Assembly (NCBI GenBank): GCA_021300535.1
Contig: JAJTED010000014.1
Location: 15,234-79,233 of the forward strand
From: Planctomycetaceae bacterium
Lineage (GTDB): Bacteria; Planctomycetota; Planctomycetia; Pirellulales; UBA1268
Length of the DNA stretch: 64,000 nt
Direction: 5' to 3'
Below are positions 6,745 through 33,033 of this stretch, in pieces. Within the stretch, counting starts at the first letter, position 1, and every line of letters starts with the position of its first letter. The position numbers and the translations under genes were made by a program. The notes beneath the pieces are model-generated. The model did not search any database. It had not been told where the DNA came from and was given only the letters and a program-made list of their open reading frames with translations.

Positions 6745-6906
6745 TCGAATCCCCCGGCTCCCGCCGGGGGCTTTTTGTGATGCGGCCGCGCATGCCCCAA
6801 AACGATGCGGCCGCGCATGCCCCAAAACGGTGCGGCCGCATCCGCCCCAAGAAGCCCCGGGTGGAAACCCGGGGACTCCGGGCATGAAAACCACCCCGTC
6901 AACCAT
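6745..6906. repeat. family-1 REPIN (reverse orientation) with expanded loop
   Basis: Cores at 6751-6770 and 6855-6874. The loop carries repeated 25 bp GCGGCCGC-containing units. Sits between convergent genes. Confidence 0.85.
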
Positions 6907-9178: not shown

Positions 9179-9590
9179 CATGGCACGCGGGATCGCGATT
9201 CGACCCGGTGTCCCCCGGCTCCCGCCGGGGGCTTTTTGTGGTGTCATACCGCCCGCCCCAAAACGGCGTGGCCGCGCGGGCCCCCAAAACCGTGCGGCCG
9301 CGGGCCCCCAAAACCGTGCGGCCGCGTGCCCCCAAAACCGTGCGGCCGCGTGGACCCCAAGAAGCCCCGGGTGGAAACCCGGGGACTCCGGGTATGAACA
9401 CCACCCCGTCATCCATGCTCAAACGCCCCGCGCCAGGGCTGCGTAACGTCCACATGCATGGCACGCGGGATCGCGATTCGACCCGGTGTCCCCCGGCTAC
9501 CGCCGGGGGCTTTTTGTGGTGTCGTACCGCCCGCCCCAAGAAGCCCCGGGTGGAAACCCGGGGACTCCGGGTATGAACACCACCCCGTTC
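9179..9590. repeat. family-1 REPINs, two copies (239 bp with 4 loop units; about 134 bp with none)
   Basis: Cores at 9212-9231, 9365-9384, 9490-9509 and 9544-9563. The first copy has four cccaaaac/GCGGCCGC loop units. Confidence 0.85.
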
Positions 9591-10874: not shown

Positions 10875-11372
10875 ATGCCACACGAACCCGGTTCCGTCAT
10901 CCGCAACAATCCGTTGGCGTTCTTCCTCACGTGGACGACCTACGGTTCGTGGCTCCCCGGCGATGCCCGCGGTTGGACTGATCATCGTGGGACGATCCGT
11001 GACCCGAACCCGCGATTGAGGCGGATTGCCACGGGATCCCTGAAGCGCGAGTCGGTCGTTCTTGGCCCCACTGACCGCGACCAGGTCGAACAGGCCATCC
11101 GTGAACACTGTCGCTTTCGAGGCTGGCATCTGCTGGCTGCCAGTTGTCGTTCGACACACGTGCATGTTGTGGTCGCGGCCGAGAATCGCCGGCCCGAAGA
11201 GGTCTTGCGGTCCCTCAAGGCGTGGTGTTCGCGGCAGCTTGCCGCTCGCGCTATGTGTTCAACGTCGAGGTGGTCGCGCGGCGGCAGCGTGCGGCGGCTG
11301 TATGAATCGCGAGATGTCGAGGCCGTGGTGGTGTATGTCGCAGAACTTCAGGACAGGCCGCGAGACGGGTAA
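10875..11372 (+). CDS. REP-associated tyrosine transposase-like protein (Y1/HUH, IS200-like fold)
   Basis: 165 aa with HUH motif STHVHVVV, C-terminal Tyr in VVVYVAELQ, and N-terminal FLTWTTYGSWLPGDARGW. Flanked by REPINs rather than IS ends. Confidence 0.62.
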   Translation: MPHEPGSVIRNNPLAFFLTWTTYGSWLPGDARGWTDHRGTIRDPNPRLRRIATGSLKRESVVLGPTDRDQVEQAIREHCRFRGWHLLAASCRSTHVHVVVAAENRRPEEVLRSLKAWCSRQLAARAMCSTSRWSRGGSVRRLYESRDVEAVVVYVAELQDRPRDG

Positions 11373-11382
11373 CGCACCCATG

Positions 11383-11852
11383 CATGGCACGCGGGATCGC
11401 GGTTCGACCCGGTGTCCCCCGGCTCCCGCCGGGGGCTTTTTGTGTGCGGCCGAGCACGCTCCAAAACGGCGTGGACGCGCGGGCACCCAAAACCGCGCGG
11501 CCGCGCGGGCACCCAAAACGGTGCGGCAGCGCAAAACCCAAGAAGCCCCGGGTGGAAACCCGGGGACTCCGCGCGTGAACACCACCCCGTCAACCATGCT
11601 CCAAACGCCCACCCGACCGCTCCGCAACGCACCCATGCATGGCACGCGGGATCACATGCGACCCGGTGTCCCCCGGCTCCCGCCGGGGGCTTTTTGTGTG
11701 CGGCCGAGCACGCCCCAAAACGGCGTGGACGCGCGGGCACCCAAAACCGCGCGGCCGCGCGGGCACCCAAAACGGTGCGGCAGCGCAAAACCCAAGAAGC
11801 CCCGGGTGGAAACCCGGGGACTCCTCGCATGAACACCACCCCGTCAACAATG
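11383..11852. repeat. family-1 REPINs, two tandem copies (255 bp period), downstream of the RAYT-like gene
   Basis: Cores at 11416-11435, 11546-11565, 11670-11689 and 11800-11819. Orientation is opposite to the upstream copy. Confidence 0.85.
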
Positions 11853-11902
11853 CTCCAAACGCCCACCCGACCGCTCCGCAACGCCTGGCTCCCGCCCGGC
11901 GA

Positions 11903-12193
11903 TCAGCGGCCGCAGCCTTGGCAGCCGCCGGCGCACTTGCCGTTGCACGAGCCGGCGTCGCCCAACTCCTTCTTGTAGGCCTTCTGGGCCGCTGCCTCCT
12001 TCGAGAGTTTGAACTCGGGGCCGGCAGGGAAGTATTGGATGTCGTCCTGCAGGTAGTAGGCGCTCGGCAGCGTCTGGCCGCCGACGTCCACTTGGCAGCC
12101 CGTCAGCGAAAGCCCGCCCAACGCGGTGGCGGCCAGCAACACACGGCACAGGCCGCGGCGAGCGAAACGTCGGGTGATGCGGGATGCTGTCAT
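11903..12193 (-). CDS. small lipoprotein with Cys-rich C-terminal tail
   Basis: 96 aa from ATG 12193. Signal peptide plus lipobox (LSLTGC). Tail is GSCNGKCAGGCQGCGR. Confidence 0.55.
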   Translation of the reverse strand: MTASRITRRFARRGLCRVLLAATALGGLSLTGCQVDVGGQTLPSAYYLQDDIQYFPAGPEFKLSKEAAAQKAYKKELGDAGSCNGKCAGGCQGCGR

Positions 12194-12386
12194 GGCTCTC
12201 GTCCGGAAGCGGGTACGGGATCGAACGCATCCCACGTATCGACCGGCGCAACCCGCAAACTTTGAACGACCCGTACGACCGGCCGAAAAGCGGCGCCCCC
12301 TCCGCCGCCCGATCGCCCATCCTTCCCAAACCTCCACCCGCCGCGTCCCCACCGCCGCGTCGCCGAAACGTGTACAACATTCCTCC

Positions 12387-15381
12387 ATGACCCCGCCTTC
12401 CGCCGTCCGCCACGGCCTGCCGGTCGCCGCAGCCGTCGCCTGCCTGCTCGCCGTGGCGGCCCGCGCCCAGGTCGTGTTACCGCCCGGGCTGGGGCAGGTT
12501 CCCGACGGCCAGATCGTGCCCACCGCCGCCTACGACCTCGCCTTGCAGGCACTCGCGGAAGGCAACTATTCCGGCGGCCTCGAGATCGCGGGCCGCGAAT
12601 ACCAGGGCGGCGTCCGGGTCGGCGCCCAGCGCTGGATCGACTCTATCGCATCGGCCGCGGTCGTGGGCGAATGCCGCTACGAGCTCGGCAGCTACCGCGA
12701 GGCGATCGCCGCCTACGAGGAGGCGTTGCTCCTCGCGGCCAACCATCCCGACTGGCTGGTTTCAGTGCAGTGGCCCCCGCAGCCGCTGCAGCCGCGGGCC
12801 GGGCGGCCGGTCGCCACCTGGGGCCGCAGCCAGCGCGGCGCGCGACCCGCGCAGCTGCCGGAAACGATCGCCATCCGCCGCGCCGGAGCCGATCCGCAGG
12901 AAGTGCTGCAGCGCGGCGGCGTGCTCGTGGCGCCGGCCGACTACCCGATTCGGCCGCAGGAGATCTTTCGGTCGCTCGAGATCGCGATCTACCGCCATGC
13001 CGAGATCCTCGGCGAGCTCGCCCGCGAGAGCCCGGCGATCGACACCGTCGCGAAAGCGCTGGTCCGCCGCGGCGCGCCGCCCAACCATTATTCGCAGGCG
13101 TGGATCGACGTGACGCTCGGCACGGCCTACTGGGTGCAGGGCAAGTCCGACCTCGCGCTGCCGCTGCTCAATCGCGGCCTGCTCATCGGCGAGGGGCTCG
13201 ACCATCCACTCACGGCCTGGGGCCTGATCGTCCTCGGACGGATCGCGCTCGCGTCCGACCAGGCTGCCGCCGCCGCGAAGCTCTTCGAGGAGGCCACCTA
13301 CGCTGCCGCCGACCACGGCGACGCCCGGGCCTTGGAAGAGGCGTTTCGCTTCGCCTTCACCGCCCACATGCTGGCCGGCACGCGTGGCGTGCCGCCGGCG
13401 ATCCGCGCGGGCTGCTCTTGGGCACAGGCCAACCTGCCGATGCTGGAGGTGAATCTCCTGGCGATGCAGGCCGAATGCCTCGCGGCTGCAGGCGAGGTGC
13501 GGCAGGCGGTGGCGGCGGTGAAGGAGATCGACGGCCGGCTGCTGCGCGGCGATCCGGGCCGCGGCCGTCCGGGGGCGCTGGCGGCCTATGCCGCCGCCAC
13601 GGTGAAGCACGCCGCCGGCGATACGGCCGCGGCCGACGCCGACCTCAACCGCGCGATTGCCATCGAGCGGTCCCGGTCGCCGCGGCTCTTCCAAACGACC
13701 AGGCTCGTGGAGTTCGCCGTCGCCGGGTCGAGTCTCGTCTCCGACCGCGAGGCCGACGGGCTGTTCGCGCGGCTGCTCGGCGACCCGACGGCCCGCGAGT
13801 TCGCCGCCGATCCGCTCGGCGCGCTGGCCGTCATCTCCACGCCCCGCACCGACGCCTTCGAGACCTGGGTCGAGGTGGCCGGCCGCCGCAGCAACGACGC
13901 GGCGCTCGAGGCGCTGGAGGCCACGGCCCGCGACCGCTGGCTGGCGGCGCAGCGGCTCGGCGGCCGCCCGATCGCGATCCAGCGGCTGCTCGGCACCGAT
14001 CCTCAAGATCTGCCGCCGGCCGAGGCGGCCCGCCGCGCGGCGGTTCTGGCCCGGTATCCGGAGCTCGCGGCCCTGCTCGACAAGCTCACACAGGTGCGCA
14101 CCGCGGTCACCGCCGCGGTCACCGCCGCCGCCGTGCAGCGGCCGGCGGGAGCCGCTGGCAAGCCGGTGCTGCCAGGCGCCGCGGCCGACTGGGAAACCTA
14201 CCGTGCGCTCGCGGCGCGGCTCGAGCAGTTCGTGGCCCGGATCGCGGCCGGCCGCGACTTCGCGCCGCTCGACTTCCCGCCGCGGACCGCCGCCGCCGAG
14301 ATTCGCCGCCGGCTCGCGCCCCGGCAGTTGATGCTGTCGTTCCACTGGACGAAGGCCGGCCTGTTCGGCGTGCTCGAATCCCGCGACCGCGCGGCCTTCT
14401 GGCAGGTGCGGCAGATCGCGGGCCTGCCCCGGGCCATGCAGGACCTCGCCAAGGCGCTGTGCCTGTTCGACCCGATCGCGCCGGTGCCCACCGATCGGCT
14501 CGTGGAGAGCGAGTGGCGCGGCGCCGCGGCCCAGGTCGAGCGCATCCTCCTCGAGAACTCGAAGATCACGCTCGCCGAGGGCATCGACGAGCTGGTGATC
14601 GTGCCCGACGGGCTGCTGTGGTATCTGCCGTTCGAGCTGCTGCCGGTCGCGTCGAACCGCCCCGGCGATCCCGACGCCGGCCAGACGAAGCTCCTCCGCG
14701 AGGTGTGCCGGATTCGCTACGCGCCCACCCGCAGCCTGGGCGTGATGCGGTTCGCGCCGCGGCAGCCCGGCGGGCCGGTCGGCATCCACGCCGGCCGGAT
14801 GTTTCGCGGCGACAAGGCCGACGACATCGCGGCCCTGCTCGAGCGGCTGACGGCGGCGGTGGAGCGCGCGGCCGCTGATCCAGCCCGCGGCAGGCACCGG
14901 CGGCATGACGTTCGGCGACTGGCTGGCCCCGCCGCTGAAACGCACGCGACGGATCCTCCTGCCCGGGCTGCAGACGGCGCTGGCCGGCGGCCTGGCGAAG
15001 CTGCCCGCCCGCGCCGGCGAAGACGTGTTCATCGCCGCCACCGATCTGCTCGCGGCAGGCAGCCAGACGGCGGTCGTGAGCCGCTGGCGGATGGGAGGCA
15101 AGGTGGCGGCCGACCTGATGGCGGAGTTTCTCCGCGACGTGACCGCTGCCAGCCCCGATGGGGCACCGCCCGCGGCGGCGGCGAGCTGGCAGCGGGCGAT
15201 CGACGTGGCGACGGCCGAAGAGCCCGATCCCGAGCGCGAGCCGCGGCTCAAGCCGGTGGCGAAGGCGGTGTTGACCGACGCGAAGCACCCGTTCCTGTGG
15301 GCGGGCTACATGCTCGTCGATTGCGGTCCGGGCACGTATGCCGATCCGCCCCCCGCGCCCGCCGTGCAGCCCGCGCGGTGA
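12387..15381 (+). pseudogene. CHAT-like domain protein, reading frame broken near 14851-14905
   Basis: Signal peptide at ATG 12387. CHAT-type motifs (VIVPDGLLWYLPFELLP; C-terminal HPFLWAGYMLVDCG) are split between frame 0 and the +1 frame (ORF 14905..15381). The 1414-aa track ORF is a high-GC read-through. Confidence 0.6.
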
Positions 15382-15398
15382 GGTCGCCCGCCGTCCCC

Positions 15399-16370
15399 AT
15401 GCCGCTCATCGCCACTCTCGATGCCCTGCAAGGCTATGCCATCCTCGCGGTGGCCGCGCTAGTGGCCGGGGCCGTGAACTCGTTCGCCGGCGGGGGCACG
15501 ATCCTCACCTTTCCCGTCCTGGGCGCGATTCTGCCCGACCTGCCGGGCCGCCTCGTCACGGCCAACGCCACGAGCACGATCGGTCTCTGGCCGGGCGCGG
15601 CGACGGCCGCCTGGGCCTACCGCGGCGAACGGGCCGACCTCCCGGCGTGGGCCCGCTGGCTCGTCGTGCCGAGCGTGGCCGGCGCGATCGTCGGCACGGC
15701 GCTCGTGCTCGTGCTGCCGCCCGAGTGGTTCGACGCCCTCGTGCCCTGGCTGATCCTCGTGGCCGCGGTGCTGTTCGCATGCCAGCCCCGGCTGGCTGCG
15801 ATGGGAACGAGTCGAGAGCAGCTCCCTCTCCCTCTGGGAGACGACCCCGGTCAGACAAAAATCCGCCCGCTCCCTCTGGGAGACGACCGTGATCCGACAA
15901 GACATCTCCCTCTCCCTCTGGGAGAGGGCCGGGGTGAGGGTGCCCCGGCGTTGCCCACCGCCCCTGCCGCATCACCTCACGTCCTGCAGCCCACCGCCCC
16001 CGCCCGCATCGCCCTGGCCTGCGGCCTGCAGTTTCTGGTGAGCGTGTACGGCGGCTACTTCGGCGCCGGCATCGGGATCCTGATGCTCGCGGTGCTGGGG
16101 ATGCTCGGCCTTGGCGACATCCATCGGCTCAACGGCGTGAAGAACGTGCTCGGCACGGTGGTCAACGGCGTGTCGGCCGCGGTGTTCGCCCTTGGCGCGC
16201 TGGCCGGATGGCACGCGGTCTCCTGGCCGCACGCGGCCGTGATGGCGGTGGCGGCGACCGTCGGCAGCCTCGGGGCCTCGCATCTGGCCCGCCGCCTGCC
16301 GGCCCGCATCGTCCGCCGCGGTGTGGCCCTGATCAGCTTCGCCCTCGCCGCCTACTATTTTCTCCGGTAG
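15399..16370 (+). CDS. TauE/SafE (DUF81) family anion exporter
   Basis: 323 aa from ATG 15399. Multi-TM protein with AGAVNSFAGGGTILTFP and VYGGYFGAGIGILML motifs. The central loop carries repeat-derived codons. Confidence 0.8.
   Translation: MPLIATLDALQGYAILAVAALVAGAVNSFAGGGTILTFPVLGAILPDLPGRLVTANATSTIGLWPGAATAAWAYRGERADLPAWARWLVVPSVAGAIVGTALVLVLPPEWFDALVPWLILVAAVLFACQPRLAAMGTSREQLPLPLGDDPGQTKIRPLPLGDDRDPTRHLPLPLGEGRGEGAPALPTAPAASPHVLQPTAPARIALACGLQFLVSVYGGYFGAGIGILMLAVLGMLGLGDIHRLNGVKNVLGTVVNGVSAAVFALGALAGWHAVSWPHAAVMAVAATVGSLGASHLARRLPARIVRRGVALISFALAAYYFLR
15822..15945 (+). repeat. family-3 palindromic element (LPLGEGRGEGA element), two partial copies plus one full copy, inside the TauE CDS
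   Basis: CTCCCTCTCCCTCTGGGAGAGGGCCGGGGTGAGGGTGCCCC at 15906-15945. Partial copies start at 15822 and 15870. The core is a 9 bp stem with a 3 nt loop. Confidence 0.7.
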
Positions 16371-21184: not shown

Positions 21185-21945
21185 AAAAAGCCCCCGGCGG
21201 AAGCCGGGGGACTCCGGGTTGCACGCCTTCCCAGTTGCCATGCTGCGCGGGCTTGAACCGGCAAAGCACCTGCCGTCATGCGGCATGGATGGCGGGATGG
21301 TTTTCGGACCCGGAGTCCCCGGGCTCCCGCCCGGGGCTTCTTGGACCGCCCCACGAAAACTCCGGCCGGGCGTGACGACCGCAACTCCCTTGAGGCCACG
21401 CGCACCACCGCCCACAAAAAGCCCCCGGCGGAAGCCGGGGGACTCCGGGTCACCTGCCTCCCCGCTCACAATGCGCCACGGTTTCGAACCACGAAAGCAC
21501 CTGCCGTCGTGCGGCATGGATGACGGGCTGGCTTTCGGACCCGGAGTCCCCGGGCTCCCGCCCGGGGCTTCTTGGAACACGCACGCCACCCACACAAAAA
21601 GCCCCCGGCGGGAGCCGGGGGACTCCGGGTTTCACCCGTTCCCAGTTGCCATGCTGCGCGGGCTTGAACCGGCAAATCACCTGCCGTCGTGCGGCATGGA
21701 TGGCGGGATGGCTTTCGGACCCGGTGTCCCCGGGCTCCCGCCCGGGGCTTCTCGGAACACGCACGCCACCCACACAAAAAGCCCCCGGCGGAAGCCGGGG
21801 GACTCCGGGTTGCACGCCTTCCCAGTTGCCATGCTGCGCGGGCCTGAACCGGGAAAGCACCTGCCGTCGTGCGGCATGGATGACGGGCTGGCTTTCGTGC
21901 CCGGAGTCCCCGGGCTCCCGCCCGGGGCTTCTTGGACCACGCACG
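21185..21945. repeat. tandem array of family-1 REPINs (8 hairpin cores, 180 bp period)
   Basis: Cores at 21191, 21317, 21422, 21548, 21602, 21728, 21782 and 21908 (each 20 nt). The intervening sequence is also conserved. Confidence 0.85.
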
Positions 21946-21981
21946 CGAAACCACGGAGCGACTGCGGCCTGCGCCCCGATC

Positions 21982-29456: not shown

Positions 29457-29767
29457 CTTCCCCGCAGCCGTCCGTGGCCGACGCCATCGCATCCGCGATC
29501 CGCACCGTGCTTCATGACACGGGCCGCGACGCCAAGGCCGTTGAGCCTACGATGCTCCTGGCCGCCGACCTCGGGCTCGACTCCCTCGACCTCGCCCAAA
29601 CGATCGTGCTCCTGGAGCGGTCGCTGGGCATCGACCCATTCCGCCAAGCTCCTGCCGCCGGCGGCCGGCCCGCCATCCGCACCGTCGCCGACCTGATCAC
29701 CATCTACACCTCCGCCCTCCCCTCTCCTTCTCCCCCTCCCTCTCCCTCTGGGAGAGGGCCGGGGTGA
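29453..29767 (+). CDS. acyl carrier protein
   Basis: 104 aa with phosphopantetheine site DLGLDSLD. ATGA overlap with the upstream stop. The C-terminal tail and stop codon lie inside a family-3 element. Confidence 0.75.
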   Translation: MTSPQPSVADAIASAIRTVLHDTGRDAKAVEPTMLLAADLGLDSLDLAQTIVLLERSLGIDPFRQAPAAGGRPAIRTVADLITIYTSALPSPSPPPSPSGRGPG

Positions 29768-29776
29768 GGGTGCCCC
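29736..29776 (+). repeat. family-3 palindromic element at the 3' end of the ACP gene
   Basis: Identical 41-mer CTCCCTCTCCCTCTGGGAGAGGGCCGGGGTGAGGGTGCCCC. Read here in its only stop-containing frame (TGA at 29765-29767). Confidence 0.75.
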
Positions 29777-29789
29777 CCACCACCAACCC

Positions 29790-31344: not shown

Positions 31345-31593
31345 ATGCTGACCGAATATCTCCACGCCGCCGCCGCTCACGCCCGCTACGAAATCCTCCC
31401 GGAGGACCTTGATTTCTACGGTGAGATTCCGCCCTGTCCTGGCGTGCATGCGACCGGCTCGACCTTGGAAGCGTGTCGCAACGAACTGCTGTCGGCTCTG
31501 GAAGACTGGATTCTCTTTCGGATTCATCGCCACCTGCCATTGCCAGTGATCGATGGCGTCGATCTGACGGTCAAGGCGGAAGCGTCGTCCTGA
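31345..31593 (+). CDS. hicB: HicB-family antitoxin
   Basis: 82 aa with YEILPEDLDFYGEIPPCPGVHATGSTLEACRNELLSALEDWI, the UPF0150/HicB pattern. Confidence 0.68.
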   Translation: MLTEYLHAAAAHARYEILPEDLDFYGEIPPCPGVHATGSTLEACRNELLSALEDWILFRIHRHLPLPVIDGVDLTVKAEASS

Positions 31594-31690: not shown

Positions 31691-32491
31691 GTGCGTTCCG
31701 TGATCTCGCTCATCTCCGGCGGCTCGCGTGGCCTCGGCCTGGCGATCGTCGAGCGGCTGCTCGCCCGCGGCGATCGCGTGGCCACGTTCTCCCGCTCGGG
31801 CTCGCCGGCCCTCGCCGCACTCGCCGCGGCGCACCCCGATCGGCTGCACGCCGAATCTCTCGACGGCAGCGACTCGGCCGCGGTGATCGGCTTCGTGGGC
31901 CGGGTCGTGGAGCGGTTCGGCGGCCTCGATCACTGCATCGCGAATGCGGCGATCGCCCACGAGGGCGTGCTGGCGACGATGCGTGACGACGAGATCGACT
32001 CGCTGCTCACGGTGAACGTAAAAGCCTCGATCGTGCTCGTCCGCGAGTGCCTCCGCCAGATGCTCGCCCGCTCCCCGGCCCCCAGAAGCGAGCCGAAACA
32101 CTCCCCTCTCCCTCTGGGAGAGGGTGGCCGAAGGCCGGGTGAGGGTGCCCCGCCCGCCTCCATCACCGTCATCTCCTCGATCGTCGCCTCCCGCGGCTCC
32201 CCCGGCCTCGCCGTCTACGCCGCCACGAAAGCCGCGCTCGAAGGCTTCGCCCGCAGCCTCGCCCGCGAGGTGGGCCTGCGCGGTATCCGCGTCAACGCGA
32301 TTGCCCCCGGCTTTCTGGAAACCGACCTTTCGGCAACGCTCTCCGCCGACAACCGAGCCCGCCTCGCCCGCCGCACGGCCCTGGGCCGGCTCGGCACCAC
32401 CGCCGACGTCGTCGGCGCCCTCGAGTTCTTAACCAGTCCCCGCGCTGCCTTCATCACCGGCCAAGTGCTCACGATCGACGGCGGCAACTGA
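31691..32491 (+). CDS. SDR-family oxidoreductase (FabG-like ketoreductase)
   Basis: GTG start. Motifs ISGGSRGLG, NAAI, YAATKAAL and NAIAPGF. A roughly 28-codon insertion carries a family-3 element. Confidence 0.85.
   Translation: MRSVISLISGGSRGLGLAIVERLLARGDRVATFSRSGSPALAALAAAHPDRLHAESLDGSDSAAVIGFVGRVVERFGGLDHCIANAAIAHEGVLATMRDDEIDSLLTVNVKASIVLVRECLRQMLARSPAPRSEPKHSPLPLGEGGRRPGEGAPPASITVISSIVASRGSPGLAVYAATKAALEGFARSLAREVGLRGIRVNAIAPGFLETDLSATLSADNRARLARRTALGRLGTTADVVGALEFLTSPRAAFITGQVLTIDGGN
32101..32151 (+). repeat. family-3 palindromic element inside the SDR CDS
   Basis: CTCCCCTCTCCCTCTGGGAGAGGGtggccgaagGCCGGGTGAGGGTGCCCC, translated as SPLPLGEGGRRPGEGAP. Confidence 0.72.
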
Positions 32492-32506: not shown

Positions 32507-32821
32507 TCAGTAAACCTCGTCGTGCGTGCCCACGGTCAGGAGCACGATTGTTTCTGCATAAAGCCCGGCAATCTCTTTGGGTTCCCCCACCTCAAACACG
32601 ATTCTCAGGCTGTAATTCACGCTGCATGACCAGCACCCGGTGAGATCGCCTCTCAATCGATGCGATCGCAACGCGGGGTCAAACATGTCGGATCGAAGAA
32701 CAGCTACCGTCTGTAAATTTTGATCGGCCAGTGCCGCGTCTCGCTTGGCCGCTCGTTTTGCAGCCCGCCGAAAACCGCTCGTAACATAAATGTGACGAAC
32801 CGTGCCGCCCCCAGCCATCAT
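32507..32821 (-). CDS. RelE/YafQ-family type II toxin
   Basis: 104 aa with HRLRGDLTGCWSCSVNYSLRIVFEV...VLLTVGTHDEVY. ATGA overlap with the upstream small gene. Confidence 0.68.
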   Translation of the reverse strand: MMAGGGTVRHIYVTSGFRRAAKRAAKRDAALADQNLQTVAVLRSDMFDPALRSHRLRGDLTGCWSCSVNYSLRIVFEVGEPKEIAGLYAETIVLLTVGTHDEVY

Positions 32822-33033
32822 TTCCGCAAATCCCGTGCGAGATCATCGATATCGAGCAGAGTTGCCCTTCCTTGAGCCATCTCGTTTCGTCCCTCCAGAA
32901 CGTCTGAAACGATCTGTCGTCGCCCTTGCTCCGCAAGTCGTCGCTGTATCAAGTTCATTAGTTCTTTCTGGTCGTCCGCGCACAGGCTATCCACAGCCTC
33001 AACGACTTCGTCGAATGCCATCTTGCGAATCAT
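32818..33033 (-). CDS. putative cognate antitoxin
   Basis: 71 aa acidic/helical ORF, translationally coupled to the toxin. The family is not recognised. Confidence 0.5.
   Translation of the reverse strand: MIRKMAFDEVVEAVDSLCADDQKELMNLIQRRLAEQGRRQIVSDVLEGRNEMAQGRATLLDIDDLARDLRK

Follow-up and report, generated by a model that had tools for sequence, protein, structure and literature searches.

BoxC/TM_ECO elements have been on record for 30 years, and the earlier accounts of BoxC and PIT elements are reportedly those of Bergler in 1992 and of Hoyne and Maher in 2000 and 2002. We know of no accepted function for these elements and of no route by which they spread; likewise, to our knowledge, no insertion mechanism and no mobilising enzyme is known for them.

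Holder et al. (2015, PMC4666352) defined the TM_ECO pattern as CCCTCNCCC-N3-6-GGGNGAGGG-N3-GGGNGAGGG, equated it with the BoxC and PIT elements, distinguished a type A with the loop TTA from a type B with the loop CCG, and showed by CD and NMR that it forms a stable purine-motif intrastrand triplex in vitro. In E. coli the motif was always intergenic, had no association with phages, plasmids or transposons, and was tied to local genomic instability and to deletion by slippage. The known element is interspersed and multi-copy, and inverted pairs of its type A and type B copies are frequent. The same authors saw no regulatory pattern in E. coli in their own analysis and reported that earlier work on PIT elements by Hoyne and Maher had found promoter and terminator activity to be absent; the genomes of their census were proteobacterial (Holder 2015, PMC4666352). 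Kaplan et al. (2016, PMC5100583) described the same DNA as HPG1/HPG2, a G-quadruplex-hairpin-duplex switch without copies in ORFs, and proposed that it acts as a regulatory switch with an intergenic role. Their HPGQ definition asks for G3+N1-7 four times, preceded on the 5' side by a conserved C-rich arm with complementarity to the first two G-tracts (PMC5100583). For BoxC/TM_ECO the intergenic location describes the E. coli copies and is not an element of the sequence definition.

We analysed a 64-kb stretch of planctomycete DNA, called the window in what follows, in which the repeat is present in and at the end of genes. The closest genome to the window was GCA_041442895.1.

Sequence and identity of the repeat

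The exact 41-mer CTCCCTCTCCCTCTGGGAGAGGGCCGGGGTGAGGGTGCCCC occurred twice in the window, in the gene of a TauE/SafE-family membrane protein and at the 3' end of an acyl-carrier-protein-like (ACP) gene (29736-29776), on the + strand in both cases, and 100 shuffles of the window gave 0 matches to it. Its core, CCCTCTCCC-NNN-GGGAGAGGG, is a 9-bp stem with a 3-nt loop and was perfect at 15908, 29738 and 32104, the last site lying in a short-chain dehydrogenase (SDR) gene, while degenerate forms were found at 15824 and 15866; the chance expectation for the core is 0.08. The preliminary description of this DNA had recognised the core correctly, and it had placed the 41-mer inside the TauE, ACP and SDR genes, which holds for the exact copies in TauE and ACP but not for the SDR copy, a variant. 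It had also called the element a palindrome, a term that captures the hairpin stem but misses the third strand GGGTGAGGG of a triplex/G4 motif.

The published TM_ECO pattern was matched exactly by the TauE copy (15908-15940) and by the ACP copy (29738-29770). The SDR copy departs from it in the second loop alone, with 13 nt against 3, and is therefore a variant. Compared with copy no. 1 of E. coli MG1655, the type-B copy of the window differed only in loop 1. A BLAST search with positions 15900-15952 gave matches in 4316 of 5426 complete E. coli genomes, at a median of 5 places per genome; the best short E. coli matches had 94.7% identity over 38 nt, and no annotated feature was found under the E. 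coli matches, among the 8 listed. An Rfam scan of the region 15-33 kb at a permissive E-value detected no meaningful family over the elements, the sole overlap being the DUF1874 RNA with E=7, far below the gathering score. As the element fits the published pattern base for base, matches E. coli DNA and is present in many phyla (see below), it is already known and not specific to this lineage, and the earlier view of an element undescribed for the lineage has to be given up. Judged by its sequence, it is the BoxC/PIT/TM_ECO intrastrand-triplex motif of type B and equally HPG2.

The G-tracts GGGAGAGGGCCGGGGTGAGGG and the complementary 5' arm CCCTCTCCC agree with the HPGQ definition of a G4-hairpin. 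The predicted energy of the hairpin was -12.8 kcal/mol as DNA and -24.9 kcal/mol as RNA, and the G-tract alone was predicted as a quadruplex at -12.6 kcal/mol (ViennaRNA, G4 allowed), the RNA hairpin being the stronger. Five of the six reading frames of the element are free of stops, as had been proposed, and a TGA is found solely in frame +2 (PSPSGRGPG*). With 3 loci per 64 kb the element is multi-copy and interspersed; no inverted pairs were found in the window, and in the ortholog L123 inverted copies alternate with forward ones. The G-rich strand was the sense strand for every copy in the window and in the contigs of the lineage.

Inserts in the TauE, ACP and SDR genes

Orthologs of the three host genes were taken from metagenomes, those of TauE and SDR by protein homolog search, and the homologs of these two were named Planctomycetia or Pirellulales. 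At each of the three loci their alignment showed both filled and empty sites: orthologs without the palindromic DNA were also without the peptide, and the empty sites are therefore clean. The preliminary description had named orthologs with the peptide but without the DNA as a refuting case, and the alignments gave the opposite. The host genes and the segments derived from the repeat are collected in Table 1.

Table 1. Host genes and repeat-derived segments, in positions of the 64-kb window
Feature	Position	Strand	Description
TauE/SafE-family membrane protein gene, 323 aa, insert host	15399..16370	+	Pfam PF01925, E=1.4e-38, single stretch, residues 16-319
Tandem unit 1, 42 bp	15822..15863	+	Hairpin half CTCCCTCTCCCTCTGGGAGA kept, remainder diverged; encodes LPLPLGDDPGQTKI
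Tandem unit 2, 42 bp	15864..15905	+	Hairpin half, degenerate; encodes RPLPLGDDRDPTRH
Full BoxC/TM_ECO type-B element	15906..15946	+	C-arm CCCTCTCCC, loop TCT, G-arm GGGAGAGGG, loop CCG, third strand GGGTGAGGG; read as LPLPLGEGRGEGA
Insert tail	15947..15989	+	Diverged duplicate of the downstream flank (CCCACCGCCCCTGCCGCATCACC... vs CCCACCGCCCCCGCCCGCATCGCC...); CTGCAG at end
Acyl-carrier-protein-like gene, 104 aa	29453..29767	+	PF00550 (phosphopantetheine-binding); last 12 codons and stop codon derived from the insert
Insert of ~59 bp at the ACP/AMP-ligase junction	29720..29778	+	C/T-rich tract (29720-29737) and exact element
Short-chain dehydrogenase (3-oxoacyl-ACP-reductase-like) gene, 266 aa	31691..32491	+	PF13561/PF00106, two stretches skipping residues 129-155
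SDR insert, ~69 bp (23 aa)	32084..32152	+	Leader of 19-20 nt, AGAAGCGAGCCGAAACACT, and variant element CCCTCTCCC-TCT-GGGAGAGGG-TGGCCGAAGGCCG-GGTGAGGG-TGCCCC; read as ..PKHSPLPLGEGGRRPGEGAP

Taking the empty-site ortholog P0010 (L121) as reference, in which the syntenic site reads GAGCAG^CCCACCGCCCCC, the TauE insert spans 15822-15989, that is 168 bp (4 x 42) or 56 residues. GCAG(C) was found at both junctions, Tandem Repeats Finder reported a period of 42 bp at 15824-15925 (2.4 copies, 83% matches), and the last 42 bp of the insert are a diverged copy of the flank downstream. The earlier account of one full and two partial copies put the addition at about 55 residues; the insert continues 44 bp beyond the end given there.

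Among the TauE orthologs found in the homolog search the protein length ranged from 267 to 384 aa, and the alignment showed that it varies solely in the central loop. The number of units ranged from 0 (P0010, P0019, P0023, P0024, P0029, P0033 and P0035) to 5 (P0001), the window having 3 and the duplicated flank. The pair of units 1 and 2 is duplicated once more in the ortholog L124, and P0009 contains three full forward copies with inverted copies interleaved. Some of the empty alleles, e.g., that of P0010, are probably secondary precise deletions, the polarity of gain and loss at each polymorphic site being read solely from outgroups and nesting; the N-terminal TauE sequence of P0010 is most like those of the insert-bearing P0005 and P0006.

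The ACP copy had also been taken for an internal in-frame insert, and here the data gave a different picture, as it occupies the final codons of the gene, where the stop-containing frame gives PSPSGRGPG* and a new stop, a TGA within GGGTGAGGG. Insert-free ACP orthologs have 92 aa, and their stop overlaps the start of the ligase gene as ATGA. In L125 and L126 the site is empty and the ATGA overlap is retained, and in the window and in L127 about 59 bp are inserted a few codons ahead of the ATGA point. At the window locus 11 nt lie between the 3' edge of the insert and the old ATGA, and the ligase start follows the new stop after a spacer of 22 nt. On the minus strand, the C/T tract of this insert creates a further triplex-type pattern, and a relative (L138) carries the element twice in tandem at the same junction. 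No clear short repeat was found at the junctions of the ACP insert.

In the SDR gene, the variant element (32104-32150) has the 13-nt sequence TGGCCGAAGGCCG, itself a mini-hairpin, in place of CCG as second loop, and we count this subtype as new content. SDR orthologs had 240-291 aa and 0 to 3 copies. Those of P0127, P0131, P0135 and P0137 are insert-free, with 240-243 aa, and have 95-98% identity to the window protein once the insert is set aside. The empty sites of L125 and L126 read TCCCCGGCCCCC^GGCCCC and define the window insert as ~69 bp; the short repeat at its junction is GCCCC. Decayed versions of the element were present in more distant SDR orthologs.

AlphaFold models of TauE and SDR, built on the ortholog alignments, showed that both internal inserts map to predicted disordered loops. 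In TauE, residues 139-198 are coil with pLDDT <50 between helices 108-140 and 201-221, and in SDR, residues 130-152 are coil with pLDDT <50 between helix 99-126 and strand 157-166. The SDR insert site is the loop preceding the strand of the catalytic Ser.

We also looked for the features of a MITE. Except for the internal hairpin, no terminal inverted repeats were found in the element, and the junction repeats, GCAG(C) in TauE and GCCCC in SDR, could reflect microhomology instead of target-site duplications.

Conservation of the core inside genes and distribution of the motif

Conservation was compared on orthologs retrieved via protein similarity and not via the DNA motif. Between the window and L127, the SDR element core was identical at 47/47 nt, while the rest of the gene was 84% identical and its third codon positions 70%; the 20-nt leader of the same insert had diverged (12/20, by eye). 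Between the window and L123, the TauE core was identical at 37/37 nt, with ~88% for the gene and 79% for third positions. Under these third-position rates, the probabilities of such runs are ~5e-8 for SDR and ~2e-4 for TauE. As the cores are identical amid diverging third positions, these results point to a core held at the DNA level, either by a constraint that acts on DNA or RNA rather than on the peptide, or by homogenisation between copies. The perfect conservation could also reflect a function. The decayed copies of distant SDR orthologs indicate that the constraint is not permanent.

A scan with CCCTCTCCCNNNGGGAGAGGGNNNGGGTGAGGG against one genome per GTDB species gave at least 120 loci in many phyla. 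Among the matches listed were Pseudomonas, Enterobacter, Klebsiella, Citrobacter, Acinetobacter, Variovorax and Geomonas, as well as Akkermansia, Dehalococcoidia, Myxococcota, cyanobacteria, Omnitrophota and several planctomycete MAGs. The copies of Pseudomonas and Enterobacteriaceae form classic intergenic arrays. In the 120 loci listed there were 161 pattern copies, 36 of which had a stop-free frame spanning them with at least 60 codons on each side. A coding location was supported by Pfam for only 4 of the 161, i.e., a few per cent: in DnaX, at the linker of domains III-V (L003), in the N-terminal domain of a GH31 enzyme (L025), in the Radical_SAM_N domain of a YgiQ protein (L041) and in an FtsX permease (L109). 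Most of the 36 spanning frames were rejected as coding copies, being unsupported or made of two genes in one frame, as for DUF559 and Ppx in L084, and a strict GC3 test retained L025 and L041 alone besides the window copies.

A scan of metagenomes for the exact 39-mer returned 18 contigs. TauE orthologs accounted for 4 contigs and the ACP junction for 1; in-frame copies after the Proton_antipo_M domain of a NuoL/Mrp-type antiporter subunit were found in L133 and L145, copies in the 5' leader of two prepilin-type genes, and in L141 the copy was flanked by short open frames only. The remaining matches, on 8 contigs of the 18, were in-frame linker copies in an IS91-family (Y2_Tnp, PF04986) transposase gene or its remnants. 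The Y2_Tnp matches next to the element had suggested that it might be the oriIS or the end of an IS91-family transposon; this was rejected on the alignment, in which the element is inserted in frame in the transposase linker that precedes the C-terminal zinc ribbon. The four independent internal coding copies of this lineage (TauE, SDR, NuoL-like and transposase) share the G-rich sense strand and the frame PLPLGEG..., and the ACP copy has their orientation and a different frame.

Viral sequences also carried the motif, with at least 120 contigs in IMG/VR. Copies were found inside phage genes for the large terminase (L210, L264), the portal protein (L160, L166) and a serine integrase (L173), contrary to the earlier report of no association between the motif and phages.

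A literature search for coding copies of BoxC found no paper, and nothing was found on the encoded peptides (LGEGRGEG, PLPLGEG and others). The location in coding sequences, with polymorphism of presence/absence and of copy number, is the new part of these results and has hardly been described before, since the E. coli papers report a strictly intergenic motif. Also new are the occurrence in Planctomycetota and in structural genes of phages, and the conservation at the DNA level inside genes.

Origin of the coding copies and comparison with known repeats

We consider it likely that the inserts are copies of a selfish structured BoxC/TM repeat, tolerated in loops, linkers and 3' ends and resized by slippage or microhomology events. 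Such a non-autonomous GC-rich repeat of about 35-60 bp, whose single strand may adopt the form of a 9-bp hairpin, of an intrastrand triplex of the purine motif or of a G-quadruplex, would have entered coding DNA at three places, namely the central loop of TauE, the SDR loop before the catalytic Ser and the last codons of ACP. The copies would have survived because most of their frames are open, encoding a flexible peptide rich in Pro, Gly and Glu, and because extra residues are tolerated at these sites, which are loops or gene termini. The structured repeat would then promote replication slippage or microhomology events, such as tandem duplication, duplication of the flank and clean deletion, which would produce the 0-5-unit polymorphism of near-identical orthologs. 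The core would be kept identical by a constraint on nucleic-acid structure or by homogenisation, before an eventual decay. We infer the slippage mechanism, as well as the neutrality of the copies for the host. The shared orientation and frame (PLPLGEG..) of the internal copies is not predicted by simple neutral tolerance and therefore counts against this explanation; it could stem from selection for the peptide or from a process that depends on orientation.

A bolder proposal, which we regard as rather improbable, is that active copying of BoxC/TM continues in this planctomycete lineage through a sequence-specific machinery present across phyla, with phages or IS91-type elements as possible carriers, and that this machinery keeps the core identical also within genes. 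The coding copies, all in one orientation and frame, would then be more than passengers, namely cassettes of instability and translation pausing that resize loops and uncouple overlapping genes. If true, this would be the first natural system separating DNA-level from protein-level selection on the motif.

It also seems unlikely that the coding copies are functional in themselves, either as a hairpin, G4 or triplex switch on the sense strand or mRNA regulating transcription, translation speed or mRNA stability, or through the flexible PLPLGEGRGEGA loop, which would be under selection as a linker or as a hypervariable cassette. The core shows perfect conservation, synonymous positions included, the G-rich strand is sense in all copies of the window and of the lineage contigs, one frame is common to the four internal copies, and the RNA hairpin is strong (-24.9 kcal/mol), all of which would suit such a role, as would the regulatory switch proposed by Kaplan et al. 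(2016, PMC5100583). However, the host genes are unrelated in function, near-identical orthologs dispense with the insert, the copy number varies from 0 to 5 and older copies have decayed; moreover, PIT elements were without promoter and terminator activity and no regulatory pattern was seen in E. coli (Holder 2015, PMC4666352).

A very unlikely reading is that the element is mobilised by, or spreads with, an IS91-family rolling-circle transposon or phages. The IS91-family genes among the 39-mer contigs and the viral contigs, with their terminase and portal genes, are in line with it. Yet in the transposase the element is an in-frame linker insert and not a terminus, no IS91-family transposase was found in the window, and no mobile-element link was reported in E. 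coli (Holder 2015, PMC4666352); carriage would make these elements a possible vehicle, not a mechanism.

Finally, the segments might be native low-complexity loops or artefacts of assembly or annotation (collapsed repeats, pseudogenes), given that Pro/Gly-rich linkers are frequent in GC-rich genomes, that tandem repeats misassemble easily and that a chimeric join at the repeat is possible in the contigs L130, L128 and L136, but this hardly credible reading is contradicted by the identical 39-41 nt of DNA in unrelated genes (in another frame at ACP), by the same DNA between genes in other phyla, by filled and empty alleles from many independent assemblies, and by frames and Pfam domains intact on both sides of the inserts.

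Copies in coding DNA offer several advantages for the study of this motif. Their exact empty and filled sites give the boundaries of the inserts and the microhomologies at the junctions, unlike intergenic copies, and synonymous sites are an internal neutral yardstick for the constancy of the core that is unavailable to intergenic copies. In the 0-5 tandem units of one loop, the instability ascribed to the motif can be read directly. The results also correct the textbook view, the motif being neither strictly extragenic nor unlinked to phages. For annotation, peptides of the PLPLGEGRGEGA type and their versions in other frames are to be read as repeat-derived insertions and not as features of a domain.

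The preliminary description had likened the element to the Rickettsia palindromic elements (RPEs), reportedly described by Ogata et al. in 2000. In behaviour the likeness stands, as both are selfish palindromic repeats that enter unrelated genes in frame, are tolerated at structurally permissive surface positions and are present or absent among orthologs; the element is not a member of an RPE family. RPEs are ~100-150 bp long, confined to Rickettsia, and form ten families, each encoding a conserved peptide of 30-50 aa (PMC10969869). In contrast, the window element has 35-70 bp, is found in many phyla, is mostly intergenic and carries a triplex/G4 motif. The window inserts (59-69 bp per copy) are shorter, and it is the published lengths and host of RPEs that set the two apart.

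The RAYT-mobilised REP/REPIN sequences are likewise short GC-rich extragenic palindromes, frequently in inverted pairs and at high copy number. They are marked by a GTAG or CGTC tetranucleotide at the palindrome end and by an associated RAYT (Y1 transposase) gene. REPs are species-specific, whereas the window element is near-identical across phyla, and the three window copies have neither GTAG nor CGTC on their flanks. We know of no association of a BoxC-type element with RAYT.

Intragenic small repeats such as MITEs, ERIC and BOX, reportedly treated by Delihas in 2007, are similar in being small open-frame repeats that fuse in frame internally or extend 3' ends, as in ACP. A MITE is bounded by terminal inverted repeats, has target-site duplications of fixed length and derives from a parent IS, whereas the window element has no terminal inverted repeats beyond its internal hairpin and only 4-5-bp repeats, possibly microhomologies, at its junctions. 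In-frame gene fusion of small repeats (RPE, ERIC, BOX, MITEs) is well documented (PMC3184786, PMC10969869), and the review of small repeats by Delihas (2011, PMC3184786) has no mention of BoxC.

The closest likeness is to BoxC/TM_ECO itself, with which the window element shares the pattern, the CCG loop of type B, multi-copy interspersion, forward and inverted pairs (L123) and local indels and deletions. It differs in that the window copies lie in or at the end of coding sequences of a planctomycete host, and the SDR copy, with its 13-nt second loop and mini-hairpin, falls outside the published pattern. HPG1/HPG2 likewise have four G3 tracts, 3-nt loops and a complementary C-rich arm on the 5' side, the window copy corresponding to HPG2, but the window copies are in coding DNA and none of Kaplan's lie within ORFs. 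The resizing of loops seen here agrees with the instability that Holder et al. documented at intergenic copies.

Copies in viral contigs and IS91-family transposases

The BoxC/PIT/TM_ECO motif was found in at least 120 predicted viral contigs from IMG/VR (L146-L265), where in-frame copies lie within large-terminase, portal and serine-integrase genes. The motif has been stated to be unassociated with phages (PMC4666352), a statement that these viral copies contradict, and they suggest phages as a possible vehicle for its spread between lineages. An exact 39-mer of the element is also hosted in frame, read as PLPLGEGRGEGAP, by IS91-family (PF04986 Y2_Tnp) transposase genes of eight metagenome contigs, after the catalytic domain and before the C-terminal CPNCGG zinc ribbon. 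Transposase homology in L130 begins exactly where the element does on its 5' side, beside the end of an MFS gene; in L128 and L136 this homology begins about 45 nt upstream of the element. Such starts are due either to rearrangements with their break-points at the element or to chimeric assembly.

Features bearing the motif, genes flanking the SDR gene, and unrelated repeats
Feature	Location	Strand
Large-terminase gene with copy	L264 5356-7080; L210 2098-3921	
Portal gene with copy	L160 4726-6813; L166 1284-2846	
Serine-integrase gene with copy	L173 7593-9044	
Exact 39-mer in transposase gene	L128, L131, L132, L135, L136, L137, L144; L130 2496-2534	
HicB-like gene, upstream of SDR	window 31345-31593	+
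YafQ-toxin-like gene and partner, downstream of SDR	window 32507-32821, 32818-33033	both -
Other repeat families	window 11371-11884; 21397-21946; 6779-6850; 9275-9360; 11461-11532; 11700-11786	

Surroundings of the copies in the window

The SDR gene, within a polysaccharide-biosynthesis cluster, has small toxin-antitoxin-like genes on both sides, whose presence or absence varies across syntenic contigs. In some SDR orthologs (P0146, P0164, P0195), the same loop holds a different recurrent peptide, ..GGWLRRCLPPFS.. / ..GGRHLRCLPPFS.. (alignment A2, columns ~150-215), which may originate in another repeat element or another frame. Further intergenic repeat families, unrelated to the element, were also present: a 254-bp unit occurring twice, a 180-bp unit occurring three times with the GC-rich hairpin CCCCCGGCGGAAGCCGGGGG, and tandem units of 24-26 bp with GCGGCCGCGC..CCCAAAAC.

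Regarding TauE, a stop-free mechanical ORF of 1414 aa (window 12126-16370) extends from the upstream TPR/CHAT-like gene to the end of TauE. It was ruled out as the extent of TauE, the real start being the ATG at 15399, which matches the orthologs, and it exemplifies how misleading open frames can be in 66% GC DNA.

Two-sided and inverted arrangements

At the 3' end of the ACP-like gene, the minus strand (window 29720-29758) carries a second triplex-type pattern, CCCTCTCCC-AGA-GGGAGAGGG-..-GGAGAGGG, provided by a C/T-rich tract immediately upstream of the element; this copy is therefore two-sided, an arrangement conserved and tandemly duplicated in L138. In the TauE ortholog P0009 (L123 3465-3737), copies of the GGCCGAAGGCC-loop subtype in inverted orientation alternate with forward type-B copies, and all of them are translated in a single frame throughout, PLPLGEGRGEGA ... 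HPHPAFGHPLPKGEG. The inverted copies show the SDR-type variant to be a subtype that recurs, and their alternation with forward copies parallels the inverted pairing of types A and B in E. coli.
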